Position numbers and translations under genes: made by a program. Shown one piece after another: positions 21,856 to 35,960 of a stretch of 42,184 nucleotides of DNA. Each line of letters starts with the position of its first letter. Within the stretch, counting starts at the first letter, position 1. Location: positions 1 through 42,184 of IMG/VR virus record IMGVR_UViG_2565956633_000005. One strand, given 5' to 3'. A model generated the notes under the pieces. The model made no database searches, had not been told where the DNA came from, and was given only the letters and a program-made list of their open reading frames with translations. The DNA is from a virus (taxonomy: Duplodnaviria; Heunggongvirae; Uroviricota; Caudoviricetes).

Positions 21856-22262
21856 AGCCTCACCTCCGATTTTTCGGATGGCGCTGTGTGTGTTTGAAAA
21901 GGGTCAGGCTTCACGGGCTGGATTTATCAACAAAGCACGTAGCGGATGATTCCCGTGAGCCTGAAATTGATGAATATGTCTGAAATAACTAGACCATTAG
22001 TAAAACAACTCGATAAATGTGGTTAAATGAGACTACGTTCTCACAACTTAATTAGTACCAATGATTATCAAGCCCTGCCCCTACTGCGGAAAGTTAATTA
22101 ACCCAGAATCACTTGTGTGTAGCCACTGCCGGATAGTGAATCCTTTTGTGAAGGCCAGCAGAAGAGAAAAAGCGAAGAATGTATTAGTAATCGCTCTCGT
22201 TGCTGCTTTTTTAATTTGGATGATTCTCTGAGTTGCCAGTTTTCAATGAAGATAATGCGGGC

Positions 22263-22289
22263 AAAAAAAGCCTGCTCGGACGAACAGGC
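22263..22289 (-). terminator. intrinsic terminator candidate
   Basis: Minus-strand hairpin GCCTG-N10-CAGGC followed by U7 (plus A-run 22263-22269). Confidence 0.45.
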
Positions 22290-22706
22290 ATGAAAAATAA
22301 CAATACCGTCAAGGAGGTGGCGCCGGGTGCCTCCCGGTGGAACAGCCCCAGCCGACTAGTTCCGCGCAAACAAACCTGGACAAAAAAGTTTGACTGGACG
22401 CCCCGCCGCATAGGGGGATTCACCACGAACCAAAAGATAAAATCATCCGGTGACCGGGGCAATATCTAACCGGAACTTTTCAGAATCACTTATTGTTTCC
22501 TGGAGAGTACATGAGCGTTGGTGAATTCACGTGATGCTTTTGGATGAGCGCTGAACCCAAAGGTCAGTATTTTCACACAGCAATTTTGCAAAAAGCAGCG
22601 CCCATTCAAAACCAGGTCGCTTTCCAGTCACTCCGGGGAACCCATCATCGCAGACTGGAAAGCTTTTACTGGAGCGGGCAAAGGAATCGAACCTCTGACG
22701 CGCAGC

Positions 22707-23167: not shown

Positions 23168-23242
23168 TGGCGGGACAGGAAGGATTCGAACCTTCGACCA
23201 TTCGGTTAACAGCCGAACGCACAACCGCTGTGCTTCTGACCC
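23168..23242 (-). tRNA. tRNA-Asn (anticodon GTT)
   Basis: Hand-folded cloverleaf: T arm GAAGG-TTCGAAT-CCTTC, anticodon loop CTGTTAA, G73 discriminator, encoded CCA; deviations A8 and a U-U mismatch in the acceptor stem. Confidence 0.6.
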
Positions 23243-23249
23243 TGAAATG

Positions 23250-23275
23250 AAAAAGCCCCGCACGATGGCGAGGCT
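23250..23275 (-). terminator. hairpin plus U5 between late promoter candidate and tRNA
   Basis: 8-bp stem with one mismatch, then UUUUU on minus-strand transcript. Confidence 0.3.
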
Positions 23276-23328
23276 CTTAATTCTTTGTCGACCTACGAAG
23301 CTATGGCGACGATATCATATTTACATGA

Positions 23329-30039: not shown

Positions 30040-30124
30040 ACTTACTCCCGTTACTTGGCGTAACACAGTGTGATAAGGGCCTTTGAAGTTACCGCTTCAA
30101 GGGCTTTTTCTTTTCTTGTGCCTC

Positions 30125-30670
30125 TCATATAACCCCCAGCATCGATGTAACCATCGTCATCAGCGGTCCTACCTGCTCCGGCATGAGGCGGAACAGCGAC
30201 GCTATACCCTCGCTTACCTCTTTGAGCTTCTGATGCTCTGGAGCGTCCAGCAGCACGGCCTGTTTAGCCTCGGCACACTCTTTCATCGCAGAGGCGATCA
30301 GCGACATCGTGTCGTTCTGCGGCGCCAGACGGTTTCGGTACTCCAGCGGCAGGACCGACATGATTGCCGGGGCCAGCTGGCGAATGTTGTTGGCGGCGTA
30401 TTCGGTATCGCCATCAATCCATCGAAACACTTTCTGCATCTGGCGGTGCGAGTCAGTCTGGATATCCAGACCGGTTCCGCCGGACGCCCGCCACTCTTCC
30501 ACGATCAGCGCGGCGACAAATTCACGACTGCGGCAATCAGCTGCCCAGGCGCGTACTGCTGCGCGGATCCCATCGATATTTAACGCCGAGGATTCTCGCT
30601 CCCGGCGATTCTGGTAAATCATCGCCGCTGGCGAAAATTTGTTACCTTGTTGATACGCAAGTGAATGCAT
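30125..30670 (-). CDS. hypothetical regulator in the cII position (possibly YdaT-like)
   Basis: 181-aa ORF between cro-like gene and O; assignment uncertain. Confidence 0.4.
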   Translation of the reverse strand: MHSLAYQQGNKFSPAAMIYQNRRERESSALNIDGIRAAVRAWAADCRSREFVAALIVEEWRASGGTGLDIQTDSHRQMQKVFRWIDGDTEYAANNIRQLAPAIMSVLPLEYRNRLAPQNDTMSLIASAMKECAEAKQAVLLDAPEHQKLKEVSEGIASLFRLMPEQVGPLMTMVTSMLGVI

Positions 30671-30715
30671 TGCTTTCCCTTTCGTGGTTAGGGCCGCCGG
30701 TCAGGCGGCTGTCGA

Positions 30716-30946
30716 TTAATTTTTAATTCGGTCAGGGTTTGCAGCCTGTAGTAGCCACTCTGCCGTAAACTGCCCTTTTGATGCGTCAGCCAAAAGCTGT
30801 GAATAGTTGGTTTTCTCTGTGTACTCAGTGCGAGGCAACGCCGCGTTCTTTACCCACTTGTGAATAGCAACATTCGACAGACCACATAGGCGTGCCGCTG
30901 CGGTTTGTCCGCCTACAGCTTCGATTGCAAATTGCATTGGGTTCAT
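30716..30946 (-). CDS. cro: Cro-like HTH repressor
   Basis: 76 aa; HTH TAAARLCGLSNVAIHKWV; divergent from cI. Confidence 0.7.
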   Translation of the reverse strand: MNPMQFAIEAVGGQTAAARLCGLSNVAIHKWVKNAALPRTEYTEKTNYSQLLADASKGQFTAEWLLQAANPDRIKN

Positions 30947-31030
30947 AGTGTTTTCCGTTAACTATATTAACTACGAGTTAAGGTTATATCTTAACTGACA
31001 GTTATGTCAACTCTAATTGATAATTAACAC
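30947..31030. promoter_or_regulatory. OR-like operator region with divergent pR/pRM candidates
   Basis: 21-bp palindrome AGTTAAG-N7-CTTAACT (30976-30996); minus-strand pR TTGACA-16-TATAAC; plus-strand pRM CTGACA-16-GATAAT ending 8 nt before cI ATG. Confidence 0.5.
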
Positions 31031-31798
31031 ATGGTTAAAAAAGACGATTTAAAAGAAGAATTCTCGAAGAGACTTCGCGCTGCATTGCTTGATGCTGGCG
31101 TGGGTGGGCGTGGGCAGGCTGGCAGGATCAGGGAAGCTATGAAGTCCCAAGGGATTGCTGTATCTGAGCCCGGGATCTGGAAGTGGCTTAACGCATCAGC
31201 AATACCAGACCAAACCAATATCCTTGCACTTAGCCGCTGGCTTGGGGTTCGCCCTGAGTGGCTGGAATACGGAAGGAATGATCCTGAACCTGAACTGCAC
31301 AGGGTATCATCCATCCCGCCTGAATCTGAGTGGGGAACTGTCGACGCTTGGGACAAAAATACCCCCCTACCTGACGATGAGGTGGAAGTACCGTTTCTGA
31401 AGGATATCGAGTTTGCGTGTGGTGATGGGCGTGTTCATAGCGAAGATCATAACGGCTTTAAACTGAGGTTCTCCAAGGCAACGCTCAGAAGGGTGGGTGC
31501 AAATAGTGATGGTTCTGGAGTGCTTTGCTTTCCCGCTTCTGGTGACAGCATGGAGCCCGTTATTCCTGACGGCGCAACGGTAGCAGTCGATACAGGCAAC
31601 AAGCGGATTATTGACGGCGAACTCTATGCTATTAACCAGGGCGATTTAAAGCGCATAAAGCAGCTTTATCGAAAGCCTGGTGGGAAGCTATTAATACGAA
31701 GCATCAATCGCGATTATGACGATGAAGAGGCTGATGAGGCAGATGTCGAGATAATCGGTTTTGTGTTCTGGTACTCGGTATTGCGATATCGCCGATAA
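31031..31798 (+). CDS. cI: CI-like repressor (HTH plus S24 LexA-like autopeptidase domain)
   Basis: 255 aa; C-terminal GDSMEPVIPDGATVAV...K motif. Confidence 0.8.
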   Translation: MVKKDDLKEEFSKRLRAALLDAGVGGRGQAGRIREAMKSQGIAVSEPGIWKWLNASAIPDQTNILALSRWLGVRPEWLEYGRNDPEPELHRVSSIPPESEWGTVDAWDKNTPLPDDEVEVPFLKDIEFACGDGRVHSEDHNGFKLRFSKATLRRVGANSDGSGVLCFPASGDSMEPVIPDGATVAVDTGNKRIIDGELYAINQGDLKRIKQLYRKPGGKLLIRSINRDYDDEEADEADVEIIGFVFWYSVLRYRR

Positions 31799-32064: not shown

Positions 32065-32544
32065 ATGGATAAAATTAATTACCCACCCCTGTTTGAGCCA
32101 GGGCTCCATGACATGGATGAAGCTGGATTAAAATCGTATTGTGTCGATTGCTTTCCTTCATCATCCAGGCGAGGCATGCTATACTGTAATTTTATACAGC
32201 TACTCGAATCTATTCGAGAATTATCTGCTCAATATGGCTGTTTTACAGAAATATGGGTTGATGGTTCATACACCACGTCTAAACCAGAGCCTGATGATAT
32301 TGATATTTTGTTGGTATGTGACTATAGCAATATAAACTCAATACCTGTCATGCTTCGGGGCCGCGTCGATAATTTGCTTGACCGAAACTACATCAAACAA
32401 AACTACAAAATTGATGTCCTACTACTCATGAAGAATTTAGATGACCCTAACTATGATTATGAGTACTGGCGTAGCTACTGGCGCGGTTGGTTTGGTTTTG
32501 ATCGCAGTGAAAACCCGAAAGGGTTAGTGAGGATTTTTTTATGA
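32065..32544 (+). CDS. minimal nucleotidyltransferase-like protein (Pol-beta superfamily signature)
   Basis: 159 aa; AAGG RBS; EIWVDGSYTTSKPEPDDIDILLV fits hG[GS]x9-13Dx[DE]; later KIDVLLL acidic strand; AT-rich. Confidence 0.55.
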   Translation: MDKINYPPLFEPGLHDMDEAGLKSYCVDCFPSSSRRGMLYCNFIQLLESIRELSAQYGCFTEIWVDGSYTTSKPEPDDIDILLVCDYSNINSIPVMLRGRVDNLLDRNYIKQNYKIDVLLLMKNLDDPNYDYEYWRSYWRGWFGFDRSENPKGLVRIFL

Positions 32545-33473
32545 ATGATAAATCAATGTTTAAAAATTGCGATAAACGCATTGATTTCATTCAAAAAGAA
32601 GTCGATGCAATGAAGCAAAACAAAACCAGGTCCTTTGCTGACATGCTTCTTTATCGCTCCATGGATTCTCATCTGAGCGATTTGAAGGCCGAAAAATTAA
32701 AGCAAGATAGTCGGCACCCACTTATCGATTTTTTTGAGCTGCGGCTGAAAGGCTCTGAGGTTGACTTTGGCTCTATTCCTTTAGAGCTGCTTGGGGCTAT
32801 TTCAACAAATCTTGCAGCGCTAATACAAAGAGCAACACACAAAATTGCCTCAGGCAAGGACTCAAAAAAAGTTCCCTACGACGTGAAAAGCTCCTTAAAC
32901 CTCAGGCTGGCTGATTTATCCCCTGGGTCTACAAAATTGGGCGTCACCTTCTCTACAGGAATAGCAGAATTAGTAGAAACAGTACCCAGCAAGGCTGTAA
33001 AAGGCATATTCGATTTGTTGTTAAGCGATGACGACAACAACTTCATGAATCACGTCGCTGAAATTGGATACAATTCCACTGTAAGCCTTAAGAGAATCGT
33101 AGAGGAATGCGATAAACACAACTTAACATTTGATGCAAGTTGGACCGGTCCATTTAGTAATGGCACCAAGGTGGCAACTATTGACTCCAATAAAATTAAG
33201 TACTTGGTGAGTAGACTTACATCAACCATTTCATCCCCTCCCATTACTGAAACGGTTACAGGCGAACTGGTCGTTCTATCCAAATATGGGAAGCTGGAGC
33301 TTGATGTTGGTGGTGAACATTTAAAGGCTTCCTATCCGATTGAAATGCTAGATTTAATACAAAAAAAACACAAGGTCGGACAGATTGTTTCTCTTTTAGT
33401 GGAGACTACTGAGATTCACAATGATCGCATAGGTCTGTACCGTAAAAACCATCTTGTTAAATCGGTTCTTTAA
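32541..33473 (+). CDS. hypothetical protein, partner of NTase-like gene
   Basis: 310 aa; ATGA overlap with upstream gene; GTGAGGA RBS; no recognisable motif. Confidence 0.55.
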   Translation: MNDKSMFKNCDKRIDFIQKEVDAMKQNKTRSFADMLLYRSMDSHLSDLKAEKLKQDSRHPLIDFFELRLKGSEVDFGSIPLELLGAISTNLAALIQRATHKIASGKDSKKVPYDVKSSLNLRLADLSPGSTKLGVTFSTGIAELVETVPSKAVKGIFDLLLSDDDNNFMNHVAEIGYNSTVSLKRIVEECDKHNLTFDASWTGPFSNGTKVATIDSNKIKYLVSRLTSTISSPPITETVTGELVVLSKYGKLELDVGGEHLKASYPIEMLDLIQKKHKVGQIVSLLVETTEIHNDRIGLYRKNHLVKSVL

Positions 33474-33480
33474 TATCTCA

Positions 33481-33504
33481 CCCGGCCACCGCGCCGGGTT
33501 TTTT
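33481..33504 (+). terminator. intrinsic terminator
   Basis: CCCGGC-CACCGC-GCCGGG hairpin followed by TTTTTT. Confidence 0.65.
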
Positions 33505-33588
33505 ATTGCCCACCCATAAAGCCATCCTCCATTCTGCCGATAACTATCCAGCCTGAAGCTGATAACAATAACTATCGCAACACTACCT

Positions 33589-33610
33589 GCCCGCCCGTGC
33601 GGGCTTTTTT
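33589..33610 (+). terminator. intrinsic terminator
   Basis: GCCCGC-CCGT-GCGGGC hairpin followed by TTTTTT. Confidence 0.6.
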
Positions 33611-33806
33611 ATTGTCCTTTCCGCACTATCTCAGCTGCATCCCTGTTCACACCCTTACCTATCACGTTTCCCGTTTCCTTCCGGTACCGTTCCAGCTTGT
33701 CGATGATGTTTTGCTGGGTCATAGGTAAATCTGCCAGTGACAACTCCATGACCGCCCGCCCCATGGCGTGAACCATCATGTTCACTCTTTCTTCATTCAA
33801 GCCCAT
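33609..33806 (-). CDS. small hypothetical protein (65 aa)
   Basis: ATG at 33804-33806 with AGGAG RBS; isolated on minus strand. Confidence 0.45.
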   Translation of the reverse strand: MGLNEERVNMMVHAMGRAVMELSLADLPMTQQNIIDKLERYRKETGNVIGKGVNRDAAEIVRKGQ

Positions 33807-33928
33807 TACCCACTCCTTTTTGATGTTTTTTTCAGCATATCACATGCCAAGCAAATCTATAACCAAACTAAATTAACCAATAAATCATAACCTTAATAAC
33901 CAACACAGAAATAATTAACCATTGGTTA

Positions 33929-33957
33929 TTGACTGAAAATAACCATTAGTTAATAAT
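33929..33957 (+). promoter_or_regulatory. candidate pL-like promoter with operator-like repeats
   Basis: TTGACT-16 nt-TAATAA(T); embedded in TAACCA/TGGTTA repeats including palindrome TAACCATTGGTTA (33916-33928) and TAATTAAC shared with OR. Confidence 0.35.
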
Positions 33958-34373
33958 CAACCCATCGAAACGAAACATCGACAGCTGAGCGAAGTTAGCC
34001 AGCGGCGGACAGCAAGTCGCCTGCTTTTTAACAACATGCAGATTTACAGCGTCAATGACCTGTTAAGACCCCTACACGTAAACGTGCTGTATCACCGGGT
34101 GCGATCCGGTCGGTGAGAGAGTATCCCCGCGCGAGAGCGAGAACGGCGTGAGAACGGGCAACACTGGCAGGGAGTTGGCGCTGACCAATACAGGGAATGT
34201 TATGGGATGTGGTGAAGGGTTCATGGACGGGAATATGTCGCACGTAAAGCGGCGAGGCCCGAGGAGCTATTGCCGAAGATAAGTAGGCCGAATCGGGTCG
34301 AAATGGGTCTCCCACCTACCACAGCACCAAAGCATTTCTCCCGCATCAGCGGGTAACTAAGTGGAGAGTAAGT

Positions 34374-34562
34374 ATGCACAAGTGTCAATTCTGTGGGTAC
34401 TTTCTGGCATCTGAAGAGATGCAGAGAATATCTGTAAACATGGTTGGCAGGCCTTACAACATCTGCATTCCATGCTCAGAAAAGTACAAAAAGAAAGGCC
34501 TGTGGGATTCGGCAAAAAACGATATCGACTGGAAAGCACTTCCATGCGTCGATGAGACATAA
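34374..34562 (+). CDS. small Cys-rich hypothetical protein
   Basis: 62 aa, GGAGAG RBS, CxxC...CxxC pattern. Confidence 0.4.
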   Translation: MHKCQFCGYFLASEEMQRISVNMVGRPYNICIPCSEKYKKKGLWDSAKNDIDWKALPCVDET

Positions 34563-34595
34563 CCGCATCAGCGGGTAACGACAGAGGGTAAGGGG

Positions 34596-34892
34596 ATGAT
34601 CGACGACATCAAGCGCATCGACTCAATGATAAATGCGCTTCGCAATATGAAACAGGACATCAAGCGTCAGCAGAAACTAAGTGAAATAAACAGTTTAGAC
34701 CTGTCGCCGAAGCAAGCTCAAAAGCGCAATGCCGATGCTGACTGGATTGCGATGGAACAGATTAAGCGTCGGCATGAGCTGCACGCTCTGTCTGTTGAGC
34801 TTGGGTTCGCTGAGCGCCGGGAAAGTTATGCTCCATTTGAATTAACTGACGGGTGGCACCGATTCGACCACAAGCCGCGCGAACCTCAATAG
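34596..34892 (+). CDS. hypothetical protein
   Basis: 98 aa with RBS; followed by hairpin plus T-run at about 34893-34916. Confidence 0.4.
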   Translation: MIDDIKRIDSMINALRNMKQDIKRQQKLSEINSLDLSPKQAQKRNADADWIAMEQIKRRHELHALSVELGFAERRESYAPFELTDGWHRFDHKPREPQ

Positions 34893-35048
34893 CCGCCTAA
34901 CCAGCGGCTTTTTCATACCTGGAGTCATTTACGAGTGGCTCAAGTTATGACAACCGGCGGCCATCCACCGCCCATTGAAACACTGAATAAATGCGTTGAA
35001 GTCTTGTATTAACCGTTCCGTTCGCCGCGATAAGGCCAAGAGGAAATC

Positions 35049-35255
35049 ATGGTAAACCAGCACTACGGTACACAGACAGTAAACCGCGGCGCAGTTCAGC
35101 CGGGGATGCTCGTCAAACACAAGGATTCAACCTGGACGGCATCAGCTAATGCTCGTGGTCGTTTGTATCTGCATCGCGGCGTTGAGATGACTTACACCAG
35201 GGATTTGCTGGTTGAAGTTTATCTGAACGGTCTGGGGAATGGCCTCAGCCATTAA
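35049..35255 (+). CDS. hypothetical protein
   Basis: 68 aa with AGAGGA RBS. Confidence 0.35.
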   Translation: MVNQHYGTQTVNRGAVQPGMLVKHKDSTWTASANARGRLYLHRGVEMTYTRDLLVEVYLNGLGNGLSH

Positions 35256-35532
35256 CGGAGAGTTGCCAAAACACTTTAAGGACAGGTGATGAAAAAAGAA
35301 TGTGGTTATTGCCACAAGCCTGTTGAAGAAGGCGCAGAAGTAAAGAGCACCTTGCTCTATCTCAACGGTTCGCAACTGGCACAGAAAGAAAAAGAATATT
35401 GCTCTAAGCAATGCGCTGAATACGACCAGATGGCGCACGAAAGTTAAATAGCAGTCCTGAAATATGAAATGAAAAATTCGCCATTAATTTGGCGCGGCTT
35501 CTTACACCCTTAATTTAACAACTGGAGATTTT

Positions 35533-35820
35533 ATGGAAATCGTAAAAATCGAAATGAACCTGAAAGCAGTGAATAAAGAAGTGGCTGCATTCAACTGCGA
35601 GAAGAAAGTATCAGGCGTTATTCACTCAACTACAAACGGTGAAACAACAGTCATTCTCGACGGTGGCTATGTGCTTGGCAAGTTTGATTGCCCGCACTGC
35701 GCCATTGAGGAGATCAGCTTGCTGGTACTCAAAATCAGCGATAGCGATTACGCCGGCTGGGGAACCTACCGTACATACAAGCAAGATTTTATGAATGAGG
35801 CGATCGTAGCCGTCAGTTAA
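35533..35820 (+). CDS. hypothetical protein
   Basis: 95 aa with RBS. Confidence 0.4.
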   Translation: MEIVKIEMNLKAVNKEVAAFNCEKKVSGVIHSTTNGETTVILDGGYVLGKFDCPHCAIEEISLLVLKISDSDYAGWGTYRTYKQDFMNEAIVAVS

Positions 35821-35960
35821 GCGAAAGCCCACCGAAGTGGGCCCGCCATGTCCGGCCTCACCGACCAAAGTTACACCGGAAACAACATTAAAACCAAAGT
35901 TAACCCAATGGGCGCTATCAATGGTCCGGGGATTCTAACACCCAAAAATGAGGATCTCAC

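Follow-up and report, generated by a model that had tools for sequence, protein, structure and literature searches.

An early-left control region of phi80-like build with another immunity specificity and an adjacent YmgB/AriR-like small gene

With high probability, the region described here, part of a stretch of 42,184 nucleotides (the window, that is, the whole DNA that was analysed), governs the early-left genes of a lambdoid prophage that combines a phi80-like backbone with another immunity specificity and with a separate YmgB/AriR-like gene. Its OL/pL region is of a known kind, the usual left-hand control region found in lambda-like prophages. The main yield of the analysis is a clean annotation, and the small YmgB/AriR-like gene is the sole item with some reach.

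The backbone was recognized by comparison with phi80 (records M11919, X13065, and JX871397). OL and pL are placed downstream of cI and its cargo genes and upstream of nutL and N, in a gene order equal to that of phi80 and between homologous flanks. The boxA and the 'core' of nutL are identical in the two phages, and tL1 follows N in both. In detail, positions 33616-34357 share 92% identity with phi80, and positions 34563-35000, which cover the N region, share 99.8% identity at the DNA level. The divergence is limited to an operator block of ~115 bp (~33844-33959). This block matches the one of E. coli CX21 and is common to the carriers of a related CI (CX21, 88COLEC, 21AR0133, and 75/02 Stx), whereas phi80, KL53, and HK225 have a phi80-type block in its place.

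The operators are of the TTAAC-N5-GTTAA type in the window as opposed to AAATCAACA-type 19-mers in phi80, and the DNA-binding part of CI is also of another specificity. Judging from the sequences compared, the operator sequence changes together with the specificity of the repressor. The exchange of the ~115-bp block and of the repressor's DNA-binding part, inside an early-left region otherwise identical to that of phi80, is a textbook case of lambdoid mosaicism. The cargo behind cI is different as well (PDC-M63-like genes in the window, gene 40A in phi80), and the right operon of the window belongs to a different lineage.

OL operators and pL

The existence of a second operator set for the CI-like repressor, overlapping pL, had been proposed in an earlier note on this DNA, and it is now supported by three independent lines, that is, the palindrome itself, the annotation of phi80, and the relatives of the same immunity. 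The features concerned are the following, with OR given for comparison:

33859-33900, + strand: orphan half-sites (A/T)TAAC, four in number and all oriented alike, at 33859, 33873, 33887, and 33896 (half-site scan)
33915-33929, no strand: putative OL2, TTAACCATTGGTTAT, abutting the -35 hexamer (palindrome scan; in relatives the half-sites are invariant and the centre is variable)
33929-33957, + strand: predicted pL, TTGACT - 17 nt - AATAAT, with its start predicted at A33964 (promoter scan, 10 of 12 matches; phi80 alignment)
33939-33953, no strand: putative OL1, ATAACCATTAGTTAA, within the pL spacer and overlapping the -10 (palindrome scan and relatives)
30967-30981, 30991-31005, and 31024-31038, no strand: OR, three operators between cro and cI

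The repeats that had drawn attention to the region are all present. TAACCA/TGGTTA units are found on the + strand at 33860, 33874, 33897, 33916, and 33940 and on the - strand at 33923, giving six in 86 bp (the whole 42-kb window has 41 on its two strands, against 13.5 expected). The palindrome TAACCATTGGTTA is located at 33916-33928, and the motif said to be common to OR, ATAATTAAC, at 33911-33919 and, within OR, at 31020-31028. A better description of these repeats is a 15-bp palindrome, TTAAC-N5-GTTAA. With one mismatch at most, this palindrome occurs six times in the window, where 0.65 +/- 0.74 copies are expected, and none of 100 shuffles reached six. Five of the six copies lie in control regions (OR at 30967, 30991, and 31024; OL at 33915 and 33939) and the remaining one is a stray, so that the consensus is found in OR and OL and essentially nowhere else in the window.

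The second line is the homologous phi80 record, which annotates three CI operators together with the -35 and -10 of pL at the exact corresponding position. The third is provided by relatives of the same immunity, namely three E. coli prophages and 75/02 Stx, which retain the half-sites and their spacings and vary in the central 5 bp; when five phages and prophages are compared, no half-site changes, and only the centre is variable. The starts of OL1 and OL2 are 24 bp apart, and the same spacing is found at OR (30967/30991) and between OL1 and OL2 of lambda. At OR, the start-to-start spacings are 24 and 33 bp, and the third operator (31024-31038) overlaps the cI ATG at 31031.

A close parallel is the immunity region of 75/02 Stx and POCJ13, whose CI shares 70% identity with the window CI over the N-terminal 122 aa. 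Its half-sites and spacings (OR, 24 and 33 bp; OL, 24 bp) are those of the window, and, again as in the window, the cI ATG is overlapped by the third OR site and TTGACT lies between the two OL sites. This region differs in having no small divergent gene and in carrying another leader and other early-left genes. TTAAC-N5-GTTAA is thereby defined as the operator consensus of an immunity group related to the type of the Shigella phage 75/02 Stx, and this group occurs in 9 of 5426 complete E. coli genomes.

Two OL operators are clear in the window as against three in phi80. A full third one was sought by the half-site scan, which gave a single weak candidate with three mismatches (OL3, 33873-33887, TTAACCAATAAATCA). 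A comparable weak site is located 41 bp upstream of OL2 in 75/02 Stx, against 42 bp in the window, and E. coli prophages that share the immunity type retain the orphan half-sites of 33859-33900.

It is these four half-sites, deprived of a palindromic partner, that speak for reading the TAACCA repeats in another way, either as sites of some other protein, which could be Cro alone, a host nucleoid protein, or the small protein, or as a repetitive AT-rich spacer. This is extremely improbable, as the full palindromes recur at OR and OL only, overlap both early promoters at the classical positions, and co-vary with the repressor type across phages. CI operators are the preferred reading, and we infer from the sequences that CI binds at OL1 and OL2.

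The promoter had been read as TTGACT-16-TAATAA, and both elements are indeed there, with TTGACT at 33929-33934 and TAATAA 16 nt downstream; a 17-nt spacer gives AATAAT (33952-33957). The 17-nt reading is the sole promoter-like (sigma-70) site that the scan returned in 33400-35000. Its -35 and -10 align with those annotated for pL of phi80, and the predicted start aligns with the start region of lambda pL.

In a lysogen, dimers of CI (31031-31798), a protein with an N-terminal part related to phage repressors and an S24 peptidase domain, would occupy OL1 and OL2 and shut off pL. Since the starts of the two operators are 24 bp apart as at OR, they could be bound as a cooperative pair. By homology, transcription would begin near A33964 upon inactivation of CI.

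The arrangement resembles that of lambda in its palindromic operators over pL, in the 24 bp between OL1 and OL2, in the aligned transcript start region, and in the homologous base of the long leader hairpin described below. It differs in the length of the operators (15 bp in the window, 17 bp in lambda) and in the divergent small gene, which lambda lacks, and the N protein of the window is unrelated in sequence to that of lambda.

The leader, the inserted cassette, and N

A leader of about 400 nt had been claimed for the first early-left gene, and the distance from the predicted start A33964 to the first ATG (34374) is about 410 nt. However, that first gene is an insertion relative to phi80, with N located behind it, 632 nt from the start. 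In the lambda record, about 150 nt counted from the pL start region are enough to include both nutL (35518-35534) and the annotated start of N (35438). The leader and the genes behind it contain the following features:

34004-34021, + strand: short hairpin directly 5' of boxA (terminator scan; together with the boxA U-run it scores as terminator-like)
34022-34034, + strand: nutL boxA, TGCTTTTTAACAA (identical to the boxA annotated in phi80 JX871397; single copy in the window)
34075-34086, + strand: phi80 'nutL core' hairpin, CACGTAAACGTG (same sequence as annotated in phi80; the window has no other + strand copy)
34196-34336, + strand: long N-leader hairpin domain, which corresponds to the stem-loop in the N leader of lambda (consensus fold, compensatory changes)
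34341-34357, + strand: left 17-bp direct repeat, CCGCATCAGCGGGTAAC, which borders the insertion and holds a small hairpin (repeat search, phi80 boundaries)
34374-34562, + strand: 62-aa CxxC...CxxC ORF on a 205-bp insertion (34358-34562 compared with phi80; phrog_19863, E 7.9e-44)
34563-34579, + strand: right 17-bp direct repeat, ahead of the ribosome-binding site of N (repeat search, phi80 boundaries)
34596-34892, + strand: phi80-type N gene, 98 aa (99.8% DNA identity to phi80; phrog_25091)
34891-34909, + strand: tL1-type intrinsic terminator just after N (terminator scan; corresponds to phi80 tL1A)

The leader is 99.5% identical to the nutL/N leader of phi80, positions 661-938 of which are annotated in M11919 as 'nutL regulatory signal'. 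By sequence it is the phi80 nutL, with boxA and the 'core' hairpin, followed by the long hairpin of lambdoid N leaders. Rfam gave nothing credible in the leader, either when the whole window was searched at gathering scores or in a permissive search of 33400-35100. The ORF list offers ORFs of 44-87 aa for the stretch annotated as nutL in phi80. In related records, annotators have left this stretch empty or given it small ORFs that are unsupported.

The description of the leader as structured holds in part. The folding energy of the whole leader gives z = -1.77, and structure is therefore not claimable from energy alone; for the 3' third, on the contrary, the long hairpin is backed by compensatory changes. 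Its consensus fold has five pairs that are preserved in spite of substitutions on both sides, four belonging to the basal stem and the fifth to an inner stem. The basal stem is retained in HK106, phi419, L015, and L020 despite a different sequence or interior, and in HK106, L015, and L020 it is preserved by changes on both sides. The arms TTTGGGGTGTG and CACACCACCAAAG are common to the window and lambda.

The hairpin module immediately precedes N in phi80, HK106, and the 933W-type phages, and in the last two it abuts the ribosome-binding site of N. In the 933W-type phages, a 130-nt module with 91.5% identity is directly before N, and the OL region consists of two annotated repressor sites followed by nutL; the repressor, the operators, and N are different, and stk is the cargo behind cI. 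By analogy with lambda, the hairpin at 34196-34336 may be a target of RNase III that sets the translation of the next gene. In the window, this next gene is not N, as the cassette with the 62-aa ORF intervenes.

The cassette is missing before N in phi80 and is found in HK225, where its ORF is HK225_040. The ORF has a weak match to Zn_ribbon_GRF_2. Comparison of the sequences shows that the 205-bp cassette with this zinc-ribbon ORF was inserted between the hairpin and N by recombination at the 17-bp repeat. The N gene behind it is annotated as such in M11919, X13065, and JX871397. On the basis of this homology, a transcript from pL would pass the phi80-type nutL (boxA at 34022, 'core' at 34075), where N and the host Nus factors would render the RNA polymerase resistant to termination.

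The module of boxA and 'core' is also found, with 94-95% identity, in Stx2a phages of the PA2 and O104:H4 types, directly after the presumed pL region. Their boxA versions read TGCTCTTTAACAA, and a hairpin of different sequence occupies the place of the one at 34004-34021. The proteins encoded behind the shared leader in these phages were compared as candidate relatives of N and rejected, since no similarity to the window N was found. A shared boxA and 'core' ahead of unrelated proteins fits poorly, as far as sequences tell, with a strictly N-specific boxB.

These observations raise the alternative that the 5' two-thirds of the leader (boxA, 'core', about 130-250 nt, 34022-34209/34338) act without N and are not an N-specific nut site. 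The host Nus factors might be recruited through the near-consensus rrn-type boxA, or the RNA might act directly on the polymerase like the put sites of HK022. In rrn leaders a hairpin is followed by boxA; the same order is seen here, and the Stx versions keep it with a hairpin of another sequence. Furthermore, a search of the window for a matching nutR, in the form of a second boxA (with up to two mismatches) or of a second 'core', found none, which also tells against the main reading where the right operon is concerned. However, the phi80 GenBank records annotate the stretch as nutL together with N, and the module invariably precedes some early-left regulator. Its internal structure is backed by one compensatory pair only, and the high identity between phages may simply be due to recent recombination. 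An action without N is considered quite improbable, and less likely than the connector role proposed below for the small gene; an N-dependent nutL of the phi80 type remains the preferred reading of the leader.

The small gene beside OL

Upstream of the operators lie a gene that is read away from OL, a candidate promoter element for it, and a terminator-like hairpin behind the cargo genes of the cI operon:

33589-33604, + strand: second of two tandem intrinsic-terminator-like hairpins (terminator scan, sequence)
33609-33806, - strand: gene of a 65-aa YmgB/AriR-like small protein (ORF list; phrog_3975, E 1.6e-34)
33834-33842, - strand: candidate extended -10 of the small-gene promoter, TGATATGCT, with a start expected near 33827 (conserved with phi80 and HK225)

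The tandem hairpins, the first of which is at 33480-33499 (terminator scan), follow the cargo genes of the cI operon, and the second stops just short of the stop codon of the convergent 65-aa gene. The strong ribosome-binding site ascribed to this gene is present as AAGGAG, 7 nt upstream of the ATG. The gene had been regarded as a divergently transcribed small regulator. A conserved extended -10 makes divergent transcription from the operator region plausible, and the protein turned out to be YmgB/AriR-like. The motif TGnTAT(G/A)CT recurs upstream of the homologues in 88COLEC, L015, and L020. The small gene would thus form a separate unit with its own extended -10 promoter, directed away from OL and convergent with the cI operon.

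The homology and structure search suggested for this protein was performed and identified it as a remote YmgB/AriR homologue, by profile and by fold. Searches with the single sequence against Pfam, NCBIfam, PADLOC, and the PDB were all negative, and YmgB emerged only through the family profile and the predicted fold. The Pfam YmgB family (PF10798) does not match the window protein and matches 2 of 21 relatives, with E values of 0.007 or weaker. In detail, 508 homologues were found, and the family profile (hmmsearch, alignment A1 against the PDB) matched 2oxl_A with an E value of 1.7e-4 over 49 residues, the next match having 0.16. The AF2 model (pLDDT 93.4) consists of three helices, and its only good Foldseek match in the PDB was again 2oxl_A (TM 0.79/0.83, rmsd 0.8 A over 54 columns, probability 1.00), with an E value of 0.55 for the runner-up.

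The three-helix fold is shared with E. coli YmgB/AriR (PDB 2OXL, PF10798) at 28% identity. Compared with the 88-aa YmgB, the 65-aa protein lacks the N-terminal ~30 residues, and its gene is prophage-borne and monocistronic, whereas YmgB belongs to the ycgZ-ymgABC operon. R55 of the small protein aligns with R74 of YmgB, and this arginine is conserved; in YmgB, R74 is required for the binding of SpoT (PMC10704370).

The known YmgB/AriR members act on host signalling proteins and not on phage operators (PMC3509220, PMC10704370). Most likely, the 65-aa protein modulates host signalling through protein-protein contacts, with the Rcs phosphorelay and/or SpoT as its targets, and does not bind operators.

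A role within the phage switch was weighed against this, for instance, as an antirepressor or as a modulator of CI or Cro, expressed from a promoter under the control of OL in the way that pRM is controlled at OR. The gene adjoins OL and is divergent from pL in several immunity types, the annotated OL3 of phi80 starts right at the inferred -35 position of the small-gene promoter, and orphan half-sites lie between OL2 of the window and this promoter. On the other hand, the core promoter does not fall within the immunity-specific block and is unchanged between hetero-immune phages. In L015, about 75 bp separate the -10 from the nearest operator-like repeat upstream of it. In addition, 75/02 Stx lacks such a gene although its operators are of the same type, and YmgB, the one relative that can be recognised, has Rcs and SpoT as its targets (PMC3509220, PMC10704370). 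A part in the switch is therefore regarded as unlikely, and modulation of host signalling is retained as the preferred reading. Compared among phi80, the window, L015, and L020, the distances from the operators to the promoter differ, and no fixed geometry emerges that would bear on a control by CI.

Homologues with no more than 34-40% identity occupy the same slot as the small gene, facing cI convergently and the early-left genes divergently. A wider proposal, speculative and with a modest chance of being correct, is that these genes form a prophage family of YmgB/AriR-like 'connectors', which would occupy a fixed lambdoid slot, possess their own promoter, possibly be modulated by CI at the far end of OL, and rewire Rcs (capsule) or SpoT/(p)ppGpp. 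If true, the family would provide these phages with a function that has so far not been described for them, in lysogenic conversion or in biasing the decision. By acting on Rcs or SpoT, it would open a new route from prophages to capsule, biofilm, or stringent-response physiology.

In phi80 the counterpart is a 69-aa ORF upstream of OL, which has no annotation in the phi80 GenBank records. As the proposed family includes phi80, it would extend to the phi80dlacZ remnant in cloning strains of the DH5alpha type, and a gene missing from the phi80 annotation is thus carried by common laboratory strains.

Predicted operators and promoter of the early-left region

The early region of this lambdoid prophage is inverted with respect to the usual lambda map, and the region under study fills the gap between two cargo genes and the early-left genes. 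What an earlier note had observed here was confirmed, and its interpretation is supported: judged by sequence, the region is the OL/pL (left operators and early-left promoter) of a lambdoid prophage that has a phi80 backbone but is hetero-immune, and behind it come the phi80 nutL/N leader, a small inserted ORF and N. Such an OL/pL is of a well-known kind.

Features of the early region (Cro-like, CI-like, cargo and early-left genes from the ORF list and family searches; operators and the sixth copy from a palindrome scan with at most one mismatch; N from comparison with phi80)
28619, isolated sixth copy of the palindrome
30716-30946, minus strand, Cro-like gene
30967, 30991 and 31024, OR operators between cro and cI
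31031-31798, plus strand, CI-like repressor with an S24 peptidase domain
32065-33473, plus strand, two cargo genes after cI
33915 and 33939, operators OL2 and OL1
34022-34034, plus strand, nutL boxA TGCTTTTTAACAA, identical to the JX871397 (phi80) annotation
34075-34086, plus strand, nutL 'core' hairpin CACGTAAACGTG, identical to the JX871397 annotation
From about 34374, plus strand, early-left genes
34596-34892, plus strand, phi80-type N gene (98 aa), after the insertion

As had been noticed, TAACCA units recur here (six of them, inside 33860-33945), the palindrome TAACCATTGGTTA is present at 33916-33928, and ATAATTAAC is common to the OL region and OR. A 15-bp palindrome, TTAAC-N5-GTTAA, describes the repeat best; six copies of it with at most one mismatch occur in the 42 kb against 0.65 expected (at least six in 0 of 100 shuffles). 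Operators are spaced 24 bp start to start at OR and at OL, and OL1 and OL2 in the lambda record are spaced likewise. The proposed promoter, TTGACT followed by an A/T-rich -10, is also present; OL2 abuts the -35 hexamer TTGACT (33929-33934), and OL1 lies in the pL spacer, overlapping the -10 hexamer AATAAT (33952-33957). A promoter scan of 33400-35000 gave pL as the sole sigma-70-like site; its predicted start, A33964, corresponds in alignment to the region of the lambda pL start. On the 5' side of OL2, a half-site scan found four orphan half-sites of one shared orientation, among which 33873-33887, with three mismatches, is a candidate weak OL3.

The cI start codon (ATG at 31031) falls within the third OR operator (31024-31038), and in Shigella phage 75/02 Stx the third OR site overlaps the cI ATG likewise. 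This overlap suggests that the cI mRNA would be leaderless or have a very short leader, arising from a pRM-like promoter, with autoregulation at 31024-31038. CI binding at OL and the transcription start sites are likewise predictions.

Exchange of the immunity block

In a megablast search against phage records phi80 was matched, with 92% identity over window 33616-34357 and 99.8% over 34563-35000. The phi80 record annotates here three CI operators, the pL -35/-10, nutL boxA, nutL 'core', N and tL1. In a five-way alignment, divergence is limited to about 115 bp (~33844-33959): one operator block is common to the window and E. coli CX21, another to phi80, E. coli KL53 and phage HK225. Since the flanks hardly differ on either side and the alignment keeps TTGAC and the -10 in register, the region is the phi80 OL/pL position with its immunity-specific core exchanged. 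The window's block is absent from phage records at the megablast level and occurs in 9 of 5426 complete E. coli genomes.

Among phage records, 75/02 Stx / POCJ13 has the repressor most similar to the window's, at 70% identity across the N-terminal 122 aa. In 75/02 Stx, as in the window, OR has three sites spaced 24 and 33 bp start to start and OL has two sites 24 bp apart that flank TTGACT; a weak site lies 41 bp further upstream of the OL pair. The half-sites are invariant in all five sequences compared (those of the window, of three E. coli prophages and of 75/02 Stx), and the central five bases vary (OL2 centres CATTG, CAATG, CAACG and TTTGA; OR3 centres ACATG, GAATG and GTATG), as would be expected of repressor contacts. 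The OR and OL palindromes, the phi80 alignment and the 75/02 Stx layout thus argue for the proposed second operator set of a CI-like repressor over pL.

The rightward operon is from another lineage, with cro/cII-side genes (30040-30760) that are YdaS/YdaT-like and not phi80-derived. The cargo genes (32065-32544, a DUF6932 gene, and 32541-33473, both on the plus strand) match the PADLOC candidate defence system PDC-M63 A/B (E 4e-41 and 7.5e-45), occupy the slot of lambda rexAB and are 99.5% identical to those of phage mEpX1. Rfam matches above the gathering score, all on the minus strand, were STnc100 (22259-22451), a tRNA (23168-23242, tRNA-Asn by ARAGORN), isrJ (23252-23325) and isrB (35822-35919); the last is marginal (38.2 against 35 bits) and antisense between early-left ORFs.

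The mosaic leader, the inserted ORF and N

The long untranslated stretch claimed before the first early-left gene is present. From A33964 to 34357 it is 99.5% identical to phi80 M11919, whose positions 661-938 (window ~33985-34262) are annotated as a nutL regulatory signal. A second boxA or 'core' usable as nutR for the phi80-type N was found nowhere in the whole window. The leader itself is mosaic. Positions 34022-34209 (up to 34338 in some phages) are 94-95% identical in PA2-type and O104:H4-type Stx2a phages, where this boxA-plus-'core' module likewise stands after cI-cargo genes and before the first early-left genes. The downstream proteins of these phages are unrelated to the phi80-type N, and so there may be room for a leader function independent of N specificity. 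About 180 Stx phage records carry the module at 94-95% identity (window 34022-34338; 2501-2817 and 2501-2688 in comparison loci L002 and L009, respectively). Some 40-70 nt after the predicted pL start, at 34004-34034, a short hairpin and the U-rich boxA behind it together score like an intrinsic terminator; Stx-phage leaders keep a hairpin of different sequence at the counterpart.

A closed hairpin domain (34196-34336) makes up the second module. Over its segment 34203-34332 the identity to 933W-type phages, HK106 and mEp234 is 91.5%, and in these phages the module sits between nutL and the N ribosome-binding site. The claim of a structured leader holds for this domain, in whose consensus fold five pairs are altered on both sides yet kept (four of the five in the basal stem), whereas the folding energy of the whole leader is unremarkable (z = -1.77) and the boxA-plus-'core' part has one compensatory pair only. 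No Rfam family was found for the leader. The basal stem also forms in the leaders of two relatives with small-gene homologues (L015 and L020), with an entirely different interior. The lambda N leader, whose hairpin is an RNase III-sensitive structure modulating N translation, shares the hairpin arms TTTGGGGTGTG... / ...CACACCACCAAAG; by analogy, the window's hairpin may be processed by RNase III.

Relative to phi80, 205 bp are inserted in the window (34358-34562) between the two copies of a perfect 17-bp direct repeat, CCGCATCAGCGGGTAAC (34341-34357 and 34563-34579); the repeat contains a small hairpin. The insertion encodes a 62-aa CxxC...CxxC protein (phrog_19863), and the same cassette stands ahead of a different gene in HK225. 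A tL1-type terminator follows N.

The small divergent gene

The 65-aa minus-strand ORF (33609-33806) has the strong RBS attributed to it, AAGGAG, 7 nt 5' of the ATG. The gene holds its position across different immunity types and in homologues with only 34-40% identity: each is convergent with the cI operon, which it follows, and is transcribed divergently from the early-left operon, at a gap of 370-730 bp in the homologues compared. 75/02 Stx has the same operators without the gene. A candidate extended -10, TGATATGCT (33834-33842, minus strand), falls in the stretch that the window has in common with phi80 and HK225, and TGnTAT(G/A)CT recurs upstream of the homologues in E. coli 88COLEC, L015 and L020. 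The divergent position of the proposed small regulator stands, and the candidate extended -10 is conserved; CI control is not inferable from sequence, because the immunity-specific block does not include the core promoter, whose distances to the operators differ between phages.

The protein has 508 relatives in a large protein collection (47 representative clusters). Of the listed relatives, nearly all have 41-116 aa and most about 65-70 aa; those with a named source are from Escherichia, Enterobacter and Kluyvera. Single-sequence searches with the 65-aa protein found no family. A profile built from 21 diverse members hits E. coli YmgB/AriR (PDB 2OXL) with E 1.7e-4 (next match E 0.16), and two members touch Pfam YmgB. 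The AlphaFold model (pLDDT 93.4) has three helices, and its sole good PDB match is 2oxl_A (TM 0.79/0.83, rmsd 0.8 A, 28% identity). In the profile match R55 aligns with YmgB R74, which is required for SpoT binding (PMC10704370). From these results, the homology and structure search proposed earlier identifies the product of this conserved gene as a predicted YmgB/AriR-like protein. YmgB is an activator of the Rcs phosphorelay and promotes SpoT-dependent accumulation of ppGpp, via protein-protein contact (PMC3509220, PMC10704370); the phage protein may have similar targets.

This identity is modestly new. The gene is annotated in none of the three phi80 GenBank records. In phi80 it is an intact 69-aa copy (JX871397 33348-33557; locus L001 2473-2682, minus strand), and RefSeq genomes, including the DH5alpha phi80 remnant, annotate it as a hypothetical protein. 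The DH5alpha copy is WP_000362427.1 (locus L024 2482-2691), and the small-gene DNA also matches the DH5a, XL10-Gold, HST04 and GB2005 genomes.
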